DNA from: a virus
IMG/VR virus record: IMGVR_UViG_3300045988_084534
Span: 32,001-96,000 of that record
Length of the DNA stretch: 64,000 nt
Reading direction: 5' to 3' (one strand)
Shown: piece after piece, positions 3,087 through 63,939 of the stretch
Numbering within the stretch: position 1 is the stretch's first letter
How the letters are laid out: each line of letters begins with the position of its first letter
Position numbers and translations under genes: made by a program
The notes under the pieces: model-generated
What the model was told of the DNA's origin: nothing
Databases searched by the model: none
What the model saw: only the letters and a program-made list of their open reading frames with translations

Positions 3087-3423
3087 AAACCAAATCGGTC
3101 TGAGCCAGTATGTACAGATGGTAAATGTGCATAAGGAACAGCCCCTAAACCCTTGAAAGCCTCAAGAGCCTTATCACTACAACATGAGGATGAGATATGC
3201 CTGAGTGTGAATGATTCATTAGTAATGAACAATTAGTGCGAAAGCAGAAAGACGATAAGGATGATTCCATGGGCGAAAGACCTAAAGAATCTGTCATAAA
3301 TAATGTATGATAAAAGGGCAGATTGGGCGCGAAGCCGTGATGAGCGGTGTGTCAACAGAATATACAGGGCGGCCCTCCAAATATATAGGGTGAAGAATTA
3401 TTCGGGAAGGGATTGAAAACCTC

Positions 3424-3452
3424 TTGACAAATTATCTAAGATGTGCTATTGT
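3424..3452 (+). promoter_or_regulatory. sigma70/sigmaA-type promoter inside TMP intron 2
   Basis: TTGACA (3424-3429), 17-nt spacer, TGc-TATTGT extended -10 (3444-3452). Followed by GAGG (3476-3479) 8 nt before the ATG at 3488. Confidence 0.55.
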
Positions 3453-3487
3453 ATAGATACAATAAATAAAGAAACGAGGTATCTATT

Positions 3488-3703
3488 ATGTTCTTGTCTG
3501 TTATGACCTTTATTATCATTGGCCCGATGCTTGTTATCTCTGGGATTGTCGCGCTGATTAAGGAGCTTTCAAACAGCGGGAAAGGCGATAATCAGAGTCA
3601 GTCGAATCAGAATAAATATAACATTCGCTATGAAACGCCGGAAGAAGAAGAGCGGCGAATCAATGAATGGGGTTATGATGATGAAAGGTGGGGCAGATTG
3701 TGA
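3488..3703 (+). CDS. intron-borne small membrane protein (one N-terminal TM helix, acidic/basic tail)
   Basis: 71 aa: 'MFLSVMTFIIIGPMLVISGIVALI' followed by a hydrophilic tail. It has its own promoter and RBS. No nuclease motif. Confidence 0.55.
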   Translation: MFLSVMTFIIIGPMLVISGIVALIKELSNSGKGDNQSQSNQNKYNIRYETPEEEERRINEWGYDDERWGRL

Positions 3704-3784
3704 TTTTTGTATATATCTGGTTTGCTATTATGATTGTATTTACCATTCTTTGTGTATTTGATTTTAGATAATTTGTAATCACTG

Positions 3785-3997
3785 TCAGAAATGATTTCTG
3801 CTGCATCGCAGTTCAGAAAATCAGGTTTCAATGATGAAGATGCGGCGACATTAGCCAAGGTTGCGGCGCAGTATCAGAACGTAGCCGACACAGCGGTATC
3901 AGCAGAAGATGCAGCAGCTTCTATTACTTCTCAGATTCGTGCATTTGGTGAAGATGCGGCATTTGCTACTACTGTAATTGATGCTTACAACGAGGTT
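3785..3997 (+). CDS. tail tape measure protein, exon 3 of 5
   Basis: SEMISAASQFRKSGFNDEDAATLAKVAAQYQNVAD...VIDAYNEV is typical of the TMP conserved core. Ends after GAGGUU, which pairs with GACCUC (4008-4013). Confidence 0.75.
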
Positions 3998-5245
3998 TAA
4001 TTTTGTAGACCTCTATAAACAGGGTGAATTGCTGGAAACCTAAACTCATATAGAGCATGGTAATCAGCAGCCAAGATTGAGATGAAATGCTCAATAAGGT
4101 TCAGAGACTATCGAAAGCATAATAAATAAAAGTGGGAATATACCACTTGAAGTGAGTAGAGTACACAGTAGTGCTAACTGTGGAAGTGCCCTGCCCTCAT
4201 ATTATATGAGGTGATGATATAGTCCATTCCTATGAGAAATCATAGGCGAGAACTCTATAATAGGTATAATATTTGAAAGAAAAGAAGTTTTGTGTATATG
4301 TGCATATGTTTCCAAATGGGAAAAGATACATTGGTATAACCAGCAAGCGCCCAAATGACAGATGGGAGAGAGGTAGTGGGTATCGTGATAGCTTACCAAT
4401 GCGTAATGCAATAAATAAATATGGATGGGATAATATAGAGCACATAATACTATTTGATGGATTGACACAAGAAGAGGCTTGCAAAAAGGAAGTTGAACTT
4501 ATAGAGAAATATAAAACAAACATTCATAAATACGGCAATCAATATGGATACAACTTAACTGATGGAGGCGAAGGCACTACTGGGCATAAGGTGTCAGAAG
4601 AAAGAAAAGAAATTATGCGCCAACTAAAATTGGGTAAAGTTGGAAAGGATTGTCCAAATTCTCGCCCGATTGTTTGTGATGGGGTTGAGTATGAGAGTTT
4701 AACTGACTTTAAGAATAAGAATAATCATCCAAAAGGCAATATCGCAGCTTGGTTAAATGGTACAGTAGGAATGCCAGAATATTGGTATAATAAACGACTA
4801 CATTATAAAGATTTGGGATTCGATGTTGTTAAATTAGCAGACAATAAAAACCGTGCTAAAAAAGTTGTTGCAGATGGAATTATGTTTGATACGTTAGAAG
4901 ATTGTGCTAATTATTTTGGAGTAGATGCACCAAGGATATGTAATTATCTAAATGGTAAAAATGCTACACCAGACAGAATCATAAATGCAGGACTTAGATA
5001 TGAAGATGAAGATGTGCATGAATTTAAAAGGCAAACTAAAAGAAGTAAGAATAAAATAAAATGTGAAATAGATGGCATTCAATTTAATACACAAGCAGAC
5101 TTAGCGAAATATATAAAAGAAAATAAGGCGACTTTATGGGCTTGGTTTGCTGGGAAAAATCCAATGCCAGAGAAATATGTAAAGAGAGGAATAAAAATTA
5201 TAGAGTAATCTCGGCTCAACTTAGCAAATTGAGTCAAATATCAAG
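3998..5245 (+). mobile_element. group I intron (TMP intron 3) carrying a GIY-YIG endonuclease ORF
   Basis: Starts UAAUU and ends in G (..AUCAAG). P10 is UUUGU/GCAAA. Core 'gaattgctggaaacc' (4026-), P7 strands 'ggttcagagactatcg' and 'gatgatatagtcc', and P9-like hairpin cctatga-gaaa-tcatagg. Confidence 0.75.
4273..5208 (+). CDS. intron-encoded GIY-YIG homing endonuclease
   Basis: 311 aa. N-terminal 'FCVYVHMFPNGKRYIGITSKRPNDRWERGSGY...NAINKYGWDNIEH' is a GIY-(10)-YIG module with the conserved R and N. Long basic C-terminal DNA-binding region. The TTG start is uncertain. Confidence 0.7.
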   Translation: MKEKKFCVYVHMFPNGKRYIGITSKRPNDRWERGSGYRDSLPMRNAINKYGWDNIEHIILFDGLTQEEACKKEVELIEKYKTNIHKYGNQYGYNLTDGGEGTTGHKVSEERKEIMRQLKLGKVGKDCPNSRPIVCDGVEYESLTDFKNKNNHPKGNIAAWLNGTVGMPEYWYNKRLHYKDLGFDVVKLADNKNRAKKVVADGIMFDTLEDCANYFGVDAPRICNYLNGKNATPDRIINAGLRYEDEDVHEFKRQTKRSKNKIKCEIDGIQFNTQADLAKYIKENKATLWAWFAGKNPMPEKYVKRGIKIIE

Positions 5246-16203: not shown

Positions 16204-16406
16204 ATGACAAATATTGAATTGGCAAAAAAGCACGAAGATGTAGCTAAGAAATATAAGACAGTATATATGTGGGGCTGTTTTGGTCATCCAGTGACCGAGG
16301 CGATTATCAGAGAAAAGGCGGCGCAATATCCTAGTTGGTATACAGCGGCAAAGCAGAGAGAACTAAGAAAGCTGGTCGGCAAGGGATATTTTGCATTTGA
16401 CTGTGT
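16204..16406 (+). CDS. NlpC/P60-like cysteine-peptidase lysin, exon 1 (3' boundary provisional)
   Basis: '...VYMWGCFGHPVT...GKGYFAFDCV' contains the candidate catalytic Cys. The frame stops 28 nt later, while the rest of the domain lies at 18.06-18.56 kb. The best P1 is UGUGU/GCGCA. Confidence 0.5.
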
Positions 16407-18084
16407 AAATCTCACTGACTTTAGTGCGCAATAATAGTAATGTTATTGTGTGTTTATTTGAATTGCTGGAAACCCCTTAGAGACATATCAACCACAACGT
16501 AGCTATGAAATATGGGCAAGCGTGATGGTTTGAAAATGATATAGATTGGGCAATCAGCAGCGAAGCTCCGAATAGGAGAACGTTCAACGACTATCCTGTT
16601 AGAGGGAGTACAACGCAAACGATTGGCGTTGGAAGCGGATAAGACCCTATTATATAGGGTGATGATATAGTCTCATCTCATATGAAAGTATGAGGAAAAT
16701 TGTTTGAGTTCACTTATAATACTATAAAAGCAAGGAGGTGGGTATGTGGACAAAAACAGACAACATTACAAGATGTCATTGCTTAAATGGTGTGAATCGA
16801 ATAATAGTAATTTGGTTTACGAATGGGATGAAGCAAATGAAATGGCTATGAACGAGATTGGGTCAAGTAGTGGAATAAAAGTGAAATGGATATGCTCTAG
16901 GTGTGGTTTTCATTTTGAGCAAAGACCTTCAGATAGGGTGAGGGGGCATGGTTGTCCAAAGTGTGCTAGAAAATCTCATTCAAGCGTCCCCGAAACGATA
17001 TGTTATTTGGCTATCAAGCAGTATTTTTCAGATGCGATACATGGATATAAAACCGATTGGCTTGGACGTAAAGAATTGGACATCTTTATCCCATCTATTA
17101 GTGTTGGCATTGAATATGATGGAAATTCTTGGCATAATAAATCCAGAAAACGAACAGATAATGACAAGACGTGGCTATGCGCCCAGCATAATATCTTGAT
17201 CTATCGTATAAGAGAAAACGGATGCGAACCAATGGACGACGAGTCAAATAATATTTATTACAAGCCAAGCAAACAATACAATGCTCTTAAGTATTCTATT
17301 ATAGATGTACTAATGAGGCTTGGACATAATAATGTTGCTTTTGATGACTGGGAGTCGCTTATTAATAAGTCTAAATGTGAATTTTCCAGTATTGAAAGAA
17401 GTAAATCTATTGGTGTAATAAATCCAGAATTTAGTGCAAAATGGGATTACGACAAAAATTATCCTTTAACGCCATATGATATATTGGCTCATTCCAATCA
17501 TAAAGTATGGTTAAGATGTGATAAAGGACATTTGTATAAAAGAGCGCCAAACTATTCAAATCAAAAAGAATGCCCCATATGTATAAATAAAATTGTGCTT
17601 GAGGGCTATAATGATTTGGCAACAATAAGACCAGATTTGGCGTTGGATTGGAATTATGATAGAAATGGCGAATTAAAGCCAACGGAAATAACGTTCGGTT
17701 CTAATCGACGTATTTGGTGGAAATGCCATGCTTGCGGAAACGAATTTCAATCATCTCCAAATGCTAGAAAAGATAATATGGGACATTGTTCAAAATGTGT
17801 GTTCACCAATGGCAATGAAACATTATCAAAAAACAAAGCGGTTAATAATAGTCTTGCTGAGTTTTATCCAGAAATCGCAAAAGAATGGGATTATAACAAT
17901 AATGAAAGAACGCCAGACAATGTTGCAAGGATGTCTGGATTGGAAGCGTGGTGGATTTGTTCAAACGGTCATTCTTGGAAGGCTAGTGTTCATAGTCGAA
18001 CGCATGATGGGAAAAAGTGTCCATATTGTAAACAAACTCAAACAATAAACTGCTAGGCGTAGTGAACCTAGTTGAAAGAAAATG
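16407..18084 (+). mobile_element. group I intron in the lysin gene carrying a Vsr-like/DUF4379-type endonuclease ORF (ends +/- ~20 nt)
   Basis: The core is near-identical to TMP intron 1: 'gaattgctggaaaccccttagag' (16460-), 'gattgggcaatcagcagc' (16544-), 'gttcaacgactatcc' (16582-), 'gatgatatagtct' (~16663). A 12-bp stem (16699-16710 with 18035-18046) closes the ORF loop. Ends in G (..GAAAAUG). P10 is CUUUA/UAAAG. Confidence 0.65.
16746..18056 (+). CDS. intron-encoded homing endonuclease, PD-(D/E)XK Vsr-like domain plus four zinc-ribbon (DUF4379-like) modules
   Basis: 436 aa. GTG start after AAGGAGGTGGG. Nuclease motif 'ELDIFIPSISVGIEYDGNSWHN'. Repeats 'W(D/N)Y..N....P..I...S...(V/I)WW.C..GH.(W/F)......R.....CP.C'. 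Confidence 0.65.
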   Translation: MDKNRQHYKMSLLKWCESNNSNLVYEWDEANEMAMNEIGSSSGIKVKWICSRCGFHFEQRPSDRVRGHGCPKCARKSHSSVPETICYLAIKQYFSDAIHGYKTDWLGRKELDIFIPSISVGIEYDGNSWHNKSRKRTDNDKTWLCAQHNILIYRIRENGCEPMDDESNNIYYKPSKQYNALKYSIIDVLMRLGHNNVAFDDWESLINKSKCEFSSIERSKSIGVINPEFSAKWDYDKNYPLTPYDILAHSNHKVWLRCDKGHLYKRAPNYSNQKECPICINKIVLEGYNDLATIRPDLALDWNYDRNGELKPTEITFGSNRRIWWKCHACGNEFQSSPNARKDNMGHCSKCVFTNGNETLSKNKAVNNSLAEFYPEIAKEWDYNNNERTPDNVARMSGLEAWWICSNGHSWKASVHSRTHDGKKCPYCKQTQTINC

Positions 18085-28976: not shown

Positions 28977-29207
28977 CTAATCATCCTCTTCATCCATTTC
29001 ATCATAGGCTGTCATATATCCTATGTCATATCCCATACCATAATTATCTACACAAATAGTCAATAAATCATACCACATAGCAACTGTATCTTCTGTTGTT
29101 GTCATAGACGTTTCGATAATAGGCTCATCATGTGGGTTGGTCAGGTCAATAAGTTCAATCCATGAGTCATTATCCGTGATATGTAGAGTAGGGATAATCA
29201 TAATCAA
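28977..29207 (-). CDS. hypothetical acidic protein
   Basis: 76 aa. The TTG start overlaps the dUTPase stop (TTGA). An alternative ATG lies at 29201. Confidence 0.45.
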   Translation of the reverse strand: MIMIIPTLHITDNDSWIELIDLTNPHDEPIIETSMTTTEDTVAMWYDLLTICVDNYGMGYDIGYMTAYDEMDEEDD

Positions 29208-29662
29208 GTACCAGTAGAGCCAAAGCCGTTTGAGCCGCGCTCAGTAGAATCTAGCTCATCTACTTCAATGATTTCTATATCATAATAATTTAGTAGAGTA
29301 AATTGGGCGATTCTATCACCTTGACGGACAATTCGTGGCGTATCGCTATCATTATATAGAGGCACTAGCCATTCGCCTGTATACTGCTCATCAATCACGG
29401 CTACACAGTTAGCTGGTCTTAGCCCCTGTTTAGTAGCAAGCCCAGAGCGGGCAAATACAGCCGCCCAATAGCCATGAGGGATATTAGTGGCAAATCCGGC
29501 TGGGATTTTTACTGTACTATGAGGCTCAATGACCACTGTATCAAAATACATAGATTGAACATCGGCATAAATATCGAAGCAAGCATCTGTGGGATGACTT
29601 TTTTGTGGTAGTTTGGCGGTATTTGATAGTCGCTTAATTTTTAATTCAAGCATTGGCATCAT
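29204..29662 (-). CDS. dut: dUTP diphosphatase (trimeric dUTPase)
   Basis: All five dUTPase motifs are present: 'ACFDIYA', 'ARSGLA', 'AVIDEQYTGEW', 'GDRIAQ' and 'RGSNGFGSTG'. Confidence 0.9.
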   Translation of the reverse strand: MMPMLELKIKRLSNTAKLPQKSHPTDACFDIYADVQSMYFDTVVIEPHSTVKIPAGFATNIPHGYWAAVFARSGLATKQGLRPANCVAVIDEQYTGEWLVPLYNDSDTPRIVRQGDRIAQFTLLNYYDIEIIEVDELDSTERGSNGFGSTGT

Positions 29663-30263
29663 ATCCTCTCTGTGTCAATTCCATGAACATTGGTAATTTT
29701 TCAATTGCATCACATAGACAAGCCCAGTCAGGTAGGGCATGATTGCGGCGCTGTTGATAAATTGTCTTGAGTTGTCTATAATTAGTGGTCATTGCAGCTG
29801 TAAGCTCAAAACCGCTGGGAATATTATATAGCATTTCAAGCCGCGCCTCTTTAATCATATCATCAAAGACAGAAATGCCCATTTTCTTTAGTTTAACAAG
29901 TCGATTATATTCAGCAATCTTTTCATTTAGAATATCAATAGCTCTAGGGTCTACATAGCGATTACACTGCATTCTTGGGTTCATATTTTGAAGTTTGTGC
30001 ATTGTAGAGCATGAAGATACAAAATCTAACCAGTGGTAGCGCTCAAATTCGACCCATGCTTTCTCGCTAATTGTTAGGTCAAACTGGACAATAATACCAG
30101 TCAAGAATTGGTCATGTCCAGTACCAGTAGGGCAAGTAGAGCAAGCCTTAATGCCATCTGTGAGGTCGGCGGTCAAGCCGTCAAGCTCAACCGCCTTTGG
30201 ATACTTAGCCGCCCTAATCGCCTCATCTAGTCCATATACACGAACATTAGATACATTAGGCAA
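29646..30263 (-). CDS. ThyX-like (flavin-dependent thymidylate synthase fold) protein with degenerate RHR motif
   Basis: 205 aa. 'GHDQFLTGIIVQFDLTISEKAWVEFERYHWLDFVSSCSTMH' aligns by eye to the ThyX 'GH.S.lEH..ftF.i.giSR....qlvRHR..S...qSqRY' block, but RHR becomes RYH and the Ser/Arg are not conserved. 'NYRQLKTIYQQRRNHALPDW' resembles the 'N.R.l.hf...R' block. Confidence 0.4.
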   Translation of the reverse strand: MPNVSNVRVYGLDEAIRAAKYPKAVELDGLTADLTDGIKACSTCPTGTGHDQFLTGIIVQFDLTISEKAWVEFERYHWLDFVSSCSTMHKLQNMNPRMQCNRYVDPRAIDILNEKIAEYNRLVKLKKMGISVFDDMIKEARLEMLYNIPSGFELTAAMTTNYRQLKTIYQQRRNHALPDWACLCDAIEKLPMFMELTQRGYDANA

Positions 30264-30784: not shown

Positions 30785-33309
30785 TTATTCACATTTTGTC
30801 CAGCCACATGACTTACAAATTTTGCAACCGCCCTCAAACATAACGGGTTCACCGCATTCAGGGCATACCTCTGTTGAAATTGTGGCTAGTGCATTGCTCA
30901 ACTTTTTAATGCTGTCTGTTGCTTTATTAGTAGCCTCTCTTAGATTCTTAGTCACATTAACCACATCATCCTCTTTATCATCTAGTTCACTCTGCATCTC
31001 ATTATACATATCTACTAGAGCATTACCAATAGCCATAGGACAACAAGACCCCTTACTGGTATCATGGTGAGTTGCCTTGCGAGTAGCATAAGATGGGCAT
31101 ACACCAGTTGAATCAAGCTGGTCTTTGATGGTCATAATATCCACACCAGCGCGGCATAGTAGACTGACCATGCGGCTTAGACCTGTCATGAAATTTGCAC
31201 AATTTCCAGTAATAAAGATTTTACCATTACGACGCAACACAAGCAAACCGCTTGGAACTGTAAAACAATAAGATTTGCCGTCGATTGGTTTATAATCTTC
31301 AATAGTTGCAGTTGATAAGCCATGTACGTTTTGGGTTGTCCAACGCACTCTATAACTATCTTGAATATTTTGTGTTCCGTTGTTCAATGAAATTGTAGCT
31401 CTAAAACCAAGCCTTGTCAATGCAAACTGGATAAAATCAGCTTCGTGCTTTTTTGACGTATAATAAGAACCAAGTCGGTTTCCTTCGCCAACAGAGCCAT
31501 CCCAATATACACACTCATCCACAATACATTTTAATTGCTCATCATTACAAGCATACCATTTTGGTGTAAATTGCTTGTCAATAAACCATTGTTTAACACT
31601 TGGAATTGGATGAATATAAAACACGGTATATTCGGTATTGTTGATGTTTTTTTCAGTCCATCCAATATCACAATTTGTTAGTAGTTGACGAATACGAATT
31701 TTCTTTCTATCTTTTTTTACGTTAATAACAATTTTATTTCCATCAAATGTACCATCCGCATAAATTGCAACAAGTAGTCTAATTATCTCATTACTAAGCG
31801 GAATACCATTTGTATTCATAGAGAAGGTGGTTGGAATATGACGATTTTTAGAACCAGCCATGAAATCTTTTACAGTAATAATTTCATGGGTTAATTTGCT
31901 TCTAATTCCAGACATATATTTTGCATAATTTTTATACAAATACATTCTATGATCTTCTGAAAGAACCATATCCAATCCAGTTGTATTGTGGAAATATTTC
32001 ATATTCTCAACATTGTCATTAACAACGTAAGAAATTGGATAGGTTAAAGAAGCCGTTCCATCTTCATTGTACTGCAACACTTGTTCATACTCATCCATAT
32101 TATATTCGCTAATTTTTTTCCACTCGATACCATTAAAATATTCAGTATCTTTGTCTACGCATCCACCAGTCGAGCCTTTATTGAAATATACCTCTTGTAG
32201 ATTGCCGTCAATGGGGTCAAAGAATGCTAGAACATGAAGTGAGCCGCATCCTGTCTGGATTTTGCGCTTTTTGCCAATCAGGTCATTGCTTGGTTCAATG
32301 ATTGAGCCGCGAGGTAGAATGGGGGATGTGGATTCAGGCTTGGTTTCATTATCTTTCTTATTGTCAGTAAGCAAGATTCCCTGACGGATTGCATTAGGTC
32401 TAAAGATTGTACATCCCTTAATGCCTAGCTTCCAGCACTGCATATAGATGTCCTTGACTTCATCAAACGATGCTTCAGTAGGCACATTGATTGTCTTGCT
32501 AACGCTCATGTCGGTATATTTGCTGATAATAGCAAGCATAGCTACATGGTCATCGACAGACATATTAAGCGCAGTTGGGAAAATATCATGCTCGTCAAAA
32601 TCAAGTTGCTCACCCTTATCCTTTAGCTTATGATAGAGATAATAAGCATAATCCATCATCTTGACGATTTTTACGTCCTTATCGTCCTGACCCCCAATTT
32701 TTACCTTGCGGTCATAGCTAAGAGAGAAGATTGGCTCAATGCCACTAGAGCAGTTGTTACCAAATACCATAGAGATCGTGCCGCACGGTGCAACCGCTTG
32801 AATCTTGGCGTTACGAATACCATATTCAGCCATCTCGGCAATGACATCATGTTCTAGCACAGATTTGACATATGTGTTATCTGCGTGTTTATCTGGCTCA
32901 CATAGAGGGAAACAGCCCTTTTCTTTAGCAAGCTGAACTGACGCATAATATTCTGCATTAGTAATCATCTGCATTAGAGATTCAACATAATCTCTTGCTT
33001 CCTGACTATCATACTTCATGCCAAGCATAGCCAGCATATCTGCTAAACCAGTAATGCCAATACCAATGGTGCGCATACTCTTCTGATAATTTTCGTAAAT
33101 CTTGTCAGGGAATTTATTTACATCAATAATATCATCAAGCATACGGACTGCAATAGAGATTGTATTTCTTAGAGCATCAGTATCAAGATGTGCTTGCTTG
33201 GTAAATGGATTCTTTACAAAATTGTGTAGGAACAATGAGCCAAGATTACAAGCACCGCCATATTGCGATGGGTCTGTTGCATTGATTGTTCCTGCTAGAT
33301 ATTCAGCGC
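30785..33309 (-). CDS. nrdJ: class II (B12-dependent) ribonucleotide reductase, exon 2 (contains an intein)
   Basis: Begins (C)AEYLAGTINATDPSQYGGACNLGSLFLHNF. Contains 'MRTIGIGITGLADML' and 'GCTIFR'. C-terminal zinc ribbon 'CPECGEPVMFEGGCKICKSCGW'. An upstream in-frame TGA at 33310-33312 shows the ORF cannot simply continue. Confidence 0.8.
31202..32161 (-). mobile_element. LAGLIDADG intein (320 aa) within nrdJ
   Basis: The extein context 'FNKGSTGG|C...ITGN|CANFMTGLSRMVSLL' restores the conserved RNR 'GGCANF' block. The intein has an N-terminal Cys, block B 'LSEDHR', two LAGLIDADG motifs ('LLVAIYADGTF', 'VYWDGSVGEG') and a C-terminal 'GN' followed by +1 Cys. Confidence 0.8.
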
Positions 33310-33479
33310 CTCACACAATGCGTATCAAATACAGTTCGCATCGTGCGCTAGACTATCGCATCCCCTTGGGGTCTCCTCGCTTAGTCGTTCAGGCTGGCAT
33401 TACCCTTGCCCCCTGTAGCTGTGTATTCAGCGTCCAAGTCAATCAGAGGAGATTTTACATCCGCACGTTTATATGGCTA
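33310..33479 (-). mobile_element. compact ORF-less group I intron in nrdJ
   Basis: 170 nt. 5' exon ..CCGU, intron UAGCC...GUGUGAG, 3' exon GCGCUG. P1 is CCGU/GCGG. P3 is UCUCCUC/GAGGAGA. P7 is GACUA/UAGUC, flanking the P8 hairpin CCCC-AA-GGGG. P9 is AUGCG/CGCAU. Splicing recreates 'CSNP-C-AEY'. Confidence 0.75.
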
Positions 33480-34302
33480 ACGGATTACTACAAACAATTC
33501 TTTCTACATACCATGCAGGATTGCGATTATTGGCATTATCCTCATAGAATACGCCCGGTTCACCATTATCATATGCCATCTGCATGATTTCGTTCCAAAT
33601 ATCACGAGCTGGCACTAGCTTGGTAAATTGCTTATCCCACTTATCTGGCGGCAGTTTATTGCCCTTCTCGTCATAGATAGGCCAATGTAGTTTAACTTGA
33701 CCATTCTCAATGACAAGATTCATAAAAGCATCATCTACAACAACAGATAGGTTGAAATGATTTAGCCGTCCTTCTGTAGCTGATTTAGCATGAATAAATT
33801 CAAGAATGTCAGGATGATATACACTGAGCATACCCATGTTTGCACCGCGCCTTGAACCTTGCTGCACAGTAGCCGTCTGAGCATTAAATACATCCATGAA
33901 ACTAACTGGACCAGATGCAATAGCATCATTACGGGTTCTATAACCATTAGGCGCTAGATTGCTAAAAGCATAACCAATTCCGCCACCAGCTTTATGTGTC
34001 ATAGCGCCTAGCTTAACCGCATTAAAAATCTGCTCCATGCTATTACCAATAATAGGTGCTACAAAGCAGTTATTGAGAGTTAGCTTTTCGCCAATACCGG
34101 CATTGCTCATGGTGCGTCCAGCAGGGAAGAAATAGCCTTCTTTCATAATACTGAAGAATCTATCTGCCCATTTAGGCGCGTTCCAATTTCCTTCGGCGGA
34201 TGCTACAAAATCAGCTACACGCCATAGCTGGTTATCATATGACTCACCGTCCTTTTGGTATCTATCTTTCCAGATAGATTCATATACCTCATTTACAAAC
34301 AA
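33480..34302 (-). CDS. nrdJ: class II ribonucleotide reductase, exon 1
   Basis: TTG start 8 nt after GGAGG. Contains 'NNCFVAPI', 'GGGIGYAFSNL' and 'SRRGANMGML', and ends '...ERIVCSNP' plus the first base of the Cys codon. Read-through gives a stop after 3 codons. Confidence 0.8.
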
Positions 34303-34317
34303 TAAATCATCCTCCTT

Positions 34318-34933: not shown

Positions 34934-35323
34934 TTATCTATCAGTTTGTCTATGAGCTTCAATGTGCTCATCATAATCACTCCTAAATTTATTTACAGTA
35001 TCAACAAGCTCATTGATTTTACTAATTAAGTCCTCAACCTGAACACCCCATTGCGGCTTAGTCAATTTTTCAATCTTCTTCTTTTCTTGCTTAGTGAAAT
35101 ACCCGAATGTATATTTACCAATTCTGCTAAAATGGCGAGGAATGTTAGAACACACAAAATCGAAAGTCATTGTTACTTCTTTCCCGTCTTTCTTGACAAT
35201 CCCTTTCAAAATCAAAGCGTGTTCGTGACAAACCTCTCTCCAATAGATTTTCCAGTAGTCTACATATCCAATCCATCCATCCAACGTTTCAACATAATCC
35301 CCTACATGAAATTCATAGTTCAT
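34934..35323 (-). CDS. hypothetical protein
   Basis: 129-aa ORF in operon context. Confidence 0.5.
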   Translation of the reverse strand: MNYEFHVGDYVETLDGWIGYVDYWKIYWREVCHEHALILKGIVKKDGKEVTMTFDFVCSNIPRHFSRIGKYTFGYFTKQEKKKIEKLTKPQWGVQVEDLISKINELVDTVNKFRSDYDEHIEAHRQTDR

Positions 35324-63855: not shown

Positions 63856-63939
63856 TGGTGCGGGATAGGGAACTCGAATCCCTACGCCTTGCGGCAACAG
63901 ATTTTAAGTCTATCGTGGCTGCCATTACACCAATCCCGC
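63856..63939 (-). tRNA. tRNA-Leu (anticodon UAA), type II with long variable arm, CCA encoded
   Basis: Hand-folded. Acceptor GCGGGAT/ATCCCGC. Anticodon arm ATAGA-CTTAAAA-TCTGT (anticodon TAA). Variable arm GCCGCAAGGC. T arm AGGGA-TTCGAGT-TCCCT. Discriminator A plus CCA. Confidence 0.8.

Follow-up and report, generated by a model that had tools for sequence, protein, structure and literature searches.

The DNA analysed here is a 64,000-nucleotide (nt) stretch from a virus, positions 32,001 to 96,000 of the IMG/VR record IMGVR_UViG_3300045988_084534, and this whole stretch is referred to below as the window. Its minus strand carries a ribonucleotide reductase (RNR) gene that is interrupted twice, by a compact group I intron without an open reading frame (ORF) and by an in-frame intein of 320 amino acids (aa), both of which are probably functional self-splicing elements. 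The following features were delineated at the locus:

30785..34302, minus strand: the whole class II ribonucleotide reductase (nrdJ-type) gene, intron and intein included
34311..34317, minus strand: strong Shine-Dalgarno sequence AAGGAGG, 8 nt 5' of the TTG start at 34302 (direct sequence reading)
33480..34302, minus strand: exon 1, with 274 codons and a T, base 1 of the codon for the thiyl-radical Cys
33310..33479, minus strand: ORF-less group I intron, 170 nt
30785..33309, minus strand: exon 2, from the GC of the Cys codon to the stop codon (30785-30787)
31202..32161, minus strand: intein coding sequence, 320 aa, Cys1...Thr-Gly-Asn320
31382..31804, minus strand: LAGLIDADG endonuclease domain within the intein (residues ~120-260), with motifs LVAIYADG (D136) and VYWDG (D221)
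30788..31201, minus strand: C-extein, comprising the remaining TSCPD domain, a linker and a C-terminal CxxC...CxxC tail

Two long minus-strand ORFs cover the locus, namely 34302..33469, which ends in ...RIVCSNPLAI and a stop codon, and 33235..30785, which stays open further upstream in the same frame. Removing 170 nt, with 33480 joined to 33309, gives an in-frame coding sequence (CDS) of 3348 nt that encodes 1115 aa, in which the Cys codon split as T/GC is made whole and the junction peptide reads ...VCSNP/CAEYLAG (a slash within a motif marks the insertion point here and below); the predicted ligated-exon RNA junction is AAUCCGU/GCGCUGAA. Within this product the insert CVDKDTEY...KIFITGN is followed by a Cys (CANF), and its excision rejoins GSTGG/CANF, leaving a protein of 795 aa with the predicted extein junction peptide ...NKGSTGGCANFMTGL.... 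All the coordinates given in a preliminary description of this DNA could be reproduced on the minus strand, together with the in-frame joins and the reduction from 1115 to 795 aa.

Judged by sequence models and alignments, the interrupted gene encodes an adenosylcobalamin-type (class II) RNR, NrdJ. The spliced, intein-free protein scored 527.6 bits on the TIGR02504 NrdJ_Z equivalog (cutoff 399.95) and aligned end to end with NF006417 (residues 13-794). Pfam identified Ribonuc_red_lgN, the barrel domain (residues 78-576), which the intron junction does not break, and a TSCPD domain; the match to the latter is continuous (residues 623-721) only with the 320 aa removed. When searched by tblastn against 50,697 phage records, the protein aligned in a single piece with uninterrupted class II RNRs at 99-100% coverage and at most 36% identity; megablast of the gene against the same records gave no match, and the phage itself is therefore absent from that collection. 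Alignment with Thermotoga maritima NrdJ (1XJE) matched the motifs LSACFV with LNNCFV, TNPCGE with SNPCAE and EACNLGS with GACNLGS, and located the radical Cys together with the catalytic Asn and Glu and both redox Cys residues; because the radical Cys aligns to TNPCGE of 1XJE, the intron splits the thiyl-radical cysteine codon. The solved NrdJ structure found by sequence spans only query residues 76-587, and the intein site, between residues 657 and 658 in the C-terminal TSCPD domain, lies beyond the part that it covers. The preliminary description had called both elements active-site-proximal, which holds for the intron with its split radical Cys codon and cannot be shown for the intein, given that its TSCPD site is outside the structure coverage.

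A scan of IMG/VR yielded 23 loci (designated by L numbers), whose allele states were read by tblastn of the extein. In L001-L010, on contigs of 12-90 kb of which nine out of ten came from one sample, the RNR is encoded by one uninterrupted ORF with 87-92% aa identity. Intron-less alleles read WYVERIVCSNPCAEYLAGTINATD unbroken, equal to the predicted ligated exons of the window, and intein-less alleles read FNKGSTGG/CANFMTGL unbroken; the intein-less allele of L001 carries a GGTGGATGTGCTAAT-type site, and GS[TAN]GG/C... without the 320 aa was found in L001-L010, L012, L013, L017 and L021-L023. Both insertions are therefore exact, and the sequence comparison makes them optional and polymorphic in one phage population as well, a pattern typical of homing elements rather than of ordinary domains or spacers. 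Both are selfish homing elements.

Further combinations occur among the sister phages. L016 has the same 170-nt element only, and L014 has it together with a canonical group I intron of ~865 nt (3319-4183, with an HNH_3 ORF) at KAGG/GIGY, extein residues 107/108. L011 and L018 contain a different group I intron of 903 nt, with a LAGLIDADG_2 ORF (93.6 bits), which is inserted 2 nt downstream, after UGU; it lies at 3826-4728 in L011, and its guide GCAGGG pairs with CCCUGU. In L015, L019 and L020, a 903-nt-type intron is accompanied by the same intein at the same site. The 170-nt and 903-nt introns are mutually exclusive at almost one position, and the presence of the former would destroy the target of the endonuclease-bearing latter, 2 nt away.

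A separate observation concerns the RNRs of L017, L022 and L023, which share ~43% aa identity with the window protein and whose nucleotide similarity to it is confined to one 440-nt tract (4651-5090 in these loci, corresponding to nt 1768-2207 of the window extein CDS; 91% nt identity). The protein encoded by this tract shows 100% aa identity over residues ~617-696 and 98% over 697-736. The intein insertion site, nt 1971, lies at the centre of the tract, the three loci are now without the intein, and the whole has the appearance of co-conversion or recombination about the homing site.

The intron starts with UAGCC, contains an in-frame UAA after three codons and ends in ...GUGUGAG, with the terminal (omega) G at 33310. 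The helices of a group I core were assigned as follows:

33459..33486, minus strand: P1 hairpin, 5' exon AUCCGU (33486-33481) with internal guide GCGGAU (33464-33459); the splice site has a U.G wobble
33467-33465, minus strand: P10, CGU, pairing with the first three bases of exon 2 (GCG)
33452-33446 with 33378-33372, minus strand: P3, UCUCCUC with GAGGAGA; the whole P3 region, 33372..33452, encloses P4, P5 and P6
33438-33435 with 33415-33412, minus strand: P4
33431-33428 with 33421-33418, minus strand: P5
33411-33408 with 33394-33391, minus strand: P6
33388 and 33386-33382 with 33355-33350, minus strand: P7, ACGACUA with UAGUCU and a bulged C at 33387; forms a pseudoknot with P3; region 33350..33388
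33371-33369 with 33364-33362, minus strand: P8, enclosed by P7; J8/7 is AUGCGA
33314..33345, minus strand: P9 hairpin, CACGAUGCG...CGCAUUGUG

The P7 strands are identical to those of the introns in the window that match Rfam RF00028, and the minimum-free-energy fold alone recovers P1, P3, P5, P8 and P9. There is no P2, no P7.1/P7.2 and no ORF. Three other identities were considered for the 170-nt element and rejected: a RAGATH-1 hammerhead, matched at chance level (E 6.5), for the absence of the CUGAUGA core; a group II intron, for which the element is far too short and has no domain V; and a translational bypass, given 170 nt with a structured ribozyme core.

Relatives of the intron were gathered with the core pattern GAACGACTA-N12-42-GCGATAGTC, whose matches, often two or three to a contig, were spread over more than 120 contigs of viral origin, and the window core was aligned (MAFFT) with 45 diverse relatives. 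Across these 46 sequences, 99.0% of the cells are paired, compared with 83.6% in shuffles and 39-49% when the partners are slid by 1-3 columns, and double changes were found in 18 of the 27 pairs; the observed values were reached by 0 of 500 shuffles. A second pattern, the exact 17-mer GCGATAGTCYAGCGCAC, was present in 59 contigs. Members of the GCGATAGTCYAGCGCAC subfamily come from a variety of RNR genes and invariably interrupt the same Cys codon, directly behind its first base (AAUCCNU/...G/G[CU]-xxx-GAR); some of them have an ORF in P8, and the ORF-less ones are 167-190 nt long. Twenty full-length ORF-less members from this RNR site were aligned with their exon flanks, giving 99.2% paired cells and double changes in 20/42 pairs (slid-partner controls 37-49% across the two alignments).

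Among these 20 members, the splice-site U.G occurs in 20/20, the P1 pair opposite the wobble base of the Pro codon covaries (GC 17, AU 2, UA 1), two of the three P10 pairs show double changes, and the terminal ...GUGUGAG is kept. The outer P7 pair covaries beside the bulged base (GC 17, AU 3), and the P9 hairpin is found in every member, each time with a different stem sequence. Between the core alignment and the 20-member alignment, double changes affect 7/7 and 6/7 pairs of P3, 3/3 and 4/4 of P5, and 5/6 and 3/5 of P6, and P8 is also rich in them. Among the three copies of the 170-nt intron, one P9 pair is C-G in the window, U.G in L016 and U-A in L014, and the substitutions are compensatory or located in loops. 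The Pro codon that pairs with the guide is CCG only alongside the intron and CCA or CCC in the intron-less alleles; the CCG ligated-exon sequence, as a trace of spliced RNA or as an intron-less CCG allele, was absent from the viral and metagenome contig collections.

A covariance model of the family scored 108.9 bits (E 2e-20) on the window element, with a seed that contained the window sequence, so that this is not independent evidence; the same model found no second copy of the compact intron in the window. Rfam RF00028 at the gathering score matched none of ten family loci (26 pattern matches), and Rfam on seven RNR loci gave no intron matches. A wider family of compact introns, with the consensus CUGAUUGACUUGGA...ACARGG...GAACGACUAAG...AUGCGAUAGUC, was observed in L024-L143, with two or three copies per contig in many viral contigs, and is likewise missed by Rfam at the gathering score. 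A cultured phage carries the intron as well: the marine podovirus Roseobacter phage CRP-118 (OR420741.1, L144) has a 172-nt family member at ~35056-35227 in the same Cys codon, flanked in GenBank by two 'ribonucleotide reductase' CDSs (gp44 and gp45) with no intron annotated.

In the compact introns, nothing more than three short hairpins is left of P4-P6. It may be that the 170-nt element stands for a so far undescribed and very compact class of group I introns (167-190 nt) that is dedicated to the first base of the RNR thiyl-radical Cys codon and is widespread in viral metagenomes, a tentative proposal that we hold at somewhat below even odds and that is based on Rfam RF00028 plus published subgroup lengths. 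A search of the non-subscription literature found no account of a 'smallest group I intron' or of this compact family. Should the RNAs of this class be able to self-splice unaided by proteins, they would rank as the smallest group I ribozymes in nature.

The 320-aa insert belongs to a family with the organization of inteins. A homologue search in a large protein collection gave 69 homologues, most of which span 100% of the insert, and their projected ends all begin with CVDxDTEY and end with FITGN before C, S or T. Full-length relatives were found in at least seven unrelated extein contexts (IstB/DnaC-like, DnaA-like, terminase, RtcB, PhoH, ABC and metallophosphatase). The main site in the P0003-P0063 set is the Walker A loop, G/[CS]GK[ST], of phage-type ATPases (IstB/DnaC-like, DnaA-like, terminase, ABC and helicase proteins), and in P0001 and P0002 the intein interrupts the TSCPD domain of a different RNR at the position that it has here. 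By its sequence, GSTGG/C resembles the glycine-rich first half of a P-loop, a likeness that may account for the invasion of this site by a P-loop intein. In a 51-sequence alignment, H71 (block B S-x-x-H; S68-E-D-H71), C299 and N320 are invariant and C1, D136, D221, T318 and G319 nearly so; wherever a homologue includes the C-terminal junction, its +1 residue is C, S or T.

Structure prediction points the same way. The AlphaFold2 (AF2) model of the intein has a pLDDT of 92.7 and a pTM of 0.92, and the top 16 Foldseek hits are all inteins, with TliVMA, PhoVMA, PI-PfuI and PI-SceI as the best (E 1e-14 to 1e-8); the central domain matches I-DmoI and I-Tsp061I (E 2e-6 to 3e-6). A phmmer search of the PDB with the intein found nothing. 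In the model, a HINT fold is combined with a two-motif LAGLIDADG endonuclease, the cleavage activity of which is predicted. The GC content of the intein is 32.7%, as opposed to 41-42% in the exteins.

The mechanistic class of the intein was considered as well. Classes 2 and 3 comprise inteins without a Cys1/Ser1 nucleophile, and class 3 uses a branch-point Cys at F:4 (PMC4031507). By comparison with block F of Ssp DnaB, C299 probably corresponds to the block F position 4 Cys. Class 3 was considered on account of Cys F:4 and Thr G:5 and was rejected with Cys1 present and nearly invariant; because Cys1 is present, the intein as read from its sequence is class 1 by definition. As a weaker possibility, this family, with Cys1, an invariant F:4 Cys, Thr G:5 and Gly G:6, may be mechanistically between class 1 and class 3.

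These features suggest how the gene could be expressed. The pre-mRNA would fold into a minimal 170-nt group I ribozyme placed after the first base of the Cys codon (CCG U/GC), in which the guide GCGGAU and the exon AUCCGU form P1 and the U.G pair marks the 5' splice site. A P7-bound, exogenous guanosine would attack after U-1, P10 (GCG with CGU) would align the 3' exon, and the exons would be ligated after G170 (33310); the UAA three codons into the intron could halt ribosomes before they enter the ribozyme. In the 1115-aa precursor, Cys1 would form a thioester, Cys+1 would accept the N-extein and Asn320 would cyclise, and excision of the intein would restore the TSCPD domain and yield a 795-aa NrdJ-type enzyme. 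On the one hand, the intein could home by means of its own LAGLIDADG nuclease. On the other hand, the intron is an ORF-less derivative of a family in which other members have an endonuclease ORF in P8; it would be unable to home alone, and its upkeep is probably by descent or recombination.

Several points weigh against functional self-splicing of both elements. Both splicing reactions and their chemistry are inferred here; the exactness of the insertions, the empty sites, the covarying helices, the catalytic residues and the fold are shown. On the intron side, RF00028 gave no match at 33100-33700 even at E<=10, and Rfam at the gathering score over the whole window returned no group I match at the RNR intron site; the miss is nevertheless taken as a failure of detection and not of structure, because a single RF00028 model cannot cover group I diversity (PMC6125680). 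The lack of P2 and of peripheral stabilising domains might mean a need for a protein cofactor or poor splicing. As far as the alignments go, P7 is supported by one covarying outer pair and by its identity to canonical introns, and is otherwise invariant, and both intron alignments were gathered with patterns from this very intron, which biases them towards its core. On the intein side, no Pfam or NCBIfam intein/Hint model matched the 320-aa insert, and Pfam LAGLIDADG_3 reached 18.8 bits on it, under the cutoff of 22.5. The penultimate residue is Gly319 (T-G-N) instead of His, and alignment to block F suggests that the F:13 His is absent too. The penultimate His assists splicing and is not obligatory, since splicing without it is documented (Chen et al. 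2000 and Ssp DnaE, cited in PMC4031507). With these points taken into account, we put the probability that both are functional self-splicing elements at roughly 0.88.

A decaying gene, with two dead relics in an RNR pseudogene and a phage relying on the host for deoxynucleotide synthesis, would fit with the existence of insertion-free sister phages, which shows that the population can do without the invaded allele, with the failure of standard models to recognise either element and with the loss of the endonuclease ORF from the intron. However, the reading frames are intact over 3348 nt and all the catalytic RNR residues are retained; the changes among the three intron copies are of the compensatory or loop kind described above; the intein keeps C1, H71, N320, the +1 Cys and both acidic residues of LAGLIDADG; and the same architecture recurs in independent genomes. 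Decay of the gene is accordingly very unlikely. It is even less likely that the 320 aa are never excised and serve the RNR as a permanent, endonuclease-like accessory domain. Such a domain would agree with the lack of matches to curated intein models and with the missing penultimate His, the latter being countered by the documented splicing without it (PMC4031507); yet the homologue check proposed in the preliminary description, aimed at an insert that is a normal domain, came out in favour of an intein, with ten near-identical sister RNRs lacking it exactly. Moreover, unrelated essential proteins have full-length relatives of the insert in their Walker A loops and in other motifs, with conservation of C1 and the terminal Asn with C/S/T, and the fold is that of HINT plus LAGLIDADG.

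The 170-nt element could also be left unspliced, with the enzyme assembled from two polypeptides, as in NrdA of Aeromonas phage Aeh1. Working split RNRs without splicing are documented (PMC3653736, PMC3045599), and GenBank lists the homologous CRP-118 case as two RNR CDSs. In the window, however, such an arrangement would forfeit the C-A-E-Y...GGACNLGS segment, home to the radical Cys together with the catalytic Glu and one of the redox Cys residues, because it lies before the first possible downstream start (TTG 33235), even though it is conserved in frame; and the ribozyme core is complete, covaries and is equipped with a guide that pairs with the exon. Of the explanations weighed here, a gene in two pieces is the least likely, and a gene restored by RNA splicing and protein splicing remains the preferred reading.

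The identifications made in the preliminary description are well borne out by these results. The class II RNR is backed by its TIGR02504 score and by the end-to-end alignment with uninterrupted phage counterparts; the group I intron at CSNP/C has every defining helix, with covariation in its relatives, despite the Rfam miss; and the LAGLIDADG intein at GSTGG/CANF is attested by empty sites, by C1, H71, N320 and the +1 Cys, by its occurrence in unrelated host proteins and by the AF2 fold. Its remark that finding both elements in one phage gene is unusual needs qualification: the combination is real, but it has precedents in SPbeta nrdE and A9 nrdE (PMC3653736) and recurs in L015, L019 and L020.

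Just downstream of the RNR gene, on the minus strand, translations read by eye point to genes for a dUTPase (29204-29662) and for a ThyX-type thymidylate synthase (29646-30263), and the three genes make up an ordinary nucleotide-metabolism cluster. Elsewhere, a tRNA gene lies at window positions 63859-63939 on the minus strand (RF00005, 49.4 bits).

For annotation, both elements escape the standard models (Rfam RF00028; the intein models of Pfam and NCBIfam), and pipelines consequently report a broken or split RNR, as with CRP-118, and under-count the introns and inteins of phages. The locus also offers a view of homing-element dynamics in one phage population, in which the gene is either empty or the carrier of the 170-nt intron, the endonuclease-bearing intron 2 nt off, a third intron, the intein or combinations of these; the 440-nt recombination tract at the intein site, common to an otherwise unrelated RNR, is part of these dynamics. 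A natural group I core of ~170 nt supported by covariation would, if active, be a convenient minimal ribozyme.

That a single phage RNR gene can house both an intron and an intein has been known since 1998. In nrdE of Bacillus subtilis phage SPbeta (SPbetac2), a group I intron occurs alongside an intein (Lazarevic et al. 1998, as summarised in PMC3653736). SPbeta and the present locus are alike in that the catalytic-subunit gene of one phage RNR is invaded at both the RNA and the protein level, in conserved segments. The SPbeta enzyme is a class Ib NrdE, whereas the one here is a class II NrdJ-type, and the RNR intron here is ORF-less and only 170 nt long. In other phages, nrdE of Brochothrix phage A9 contains three introns and an intein-encoded endonuclease, nrdE of Staphylococcus phage Twort contains two group I introns, and RNR is the phage nucleotide-metabolism gene that introns interrupt most often (PMC3653736). 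A9 and Twort resemble the window in having multiple self-splicing elements in a phage RNR gene near functionally important residues, and differ from it in being SPO1-like myoviruses with class Ib genes and introns of conventional size. What goes beyond the known cases is a compact, site-specific intron family invisible to Rfam and an intein family missed by curated models, neither of which was found described in the non-subscription literature searched.

The window itself contains three canonical introns on the plus strand (1721-2006, 3988-4246 and 16397-16694; RF00028, 83-99 bits), each followed by a homing-endonuclease ORF (2079-2987, HNH; 4273-5208, GIY-YIG-type; 16746-18056, HNH). The first two appear to split a tape-measure-like gene (1439-1720, ~3791-3987 and 5288 onwards). 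With the RNR intron counted, there are four introns and one intein in 64 kb. The canonical introns share with the RNR intron the P7 and J8/7 sequences (ACGACUA...GAUAGUC), the order of helices, the 5' U.G and the terminal G; in contrast to them, the RNR intron is without P2 and P7.1/P7.2, has a different P4-P6 (GAUUGACUUGG...ACARGG) and measures 170 nt versus ~260-300 nt. Small bacterial introns of the Azoarcus type are also similar in having a minimal catalytic core without large peripheral domains. The Azoarcus tRNA-Ile group I intron is ~205 nt long, and the family here, known from sequence alone, is shorter (167-190 nt) and resides in protein-coding phage genes. In the GISSD alignments, the IA3 and IB4 introns measure 205-374 and 203-392 nt, respectively (PMC6125680), and by these lower limits of 203-205 nt the present family is unusually small.

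Like PI-PfuI (1DQ3), PI-SceI (1VDE), TliVMA and PhoVMA (7QSU, 7QST), the intein is modelled as a HINT domain interrupted by a two-motif LAGLIDADG endonuclease (TM ~0.6-0.67). PI-PfuI also sits in a class II RNR. The intein here differs from these four in its low identity to them (8-14%), its penultimate Gly in place of His, its F:4 Cys, its compact 320 aa and its TSCPD site. At the level of whole genomes, a high density of group I introns and inteins characterises the Delta and Zeta groups of crAss-like phages (PMC7886860). They resemble the phage analysed here in being metagenomic and in having core genes heavily colonised by elements of both kinds, and in this comparison the tape-measure-like gene of the window argues for a long-tailed phage.

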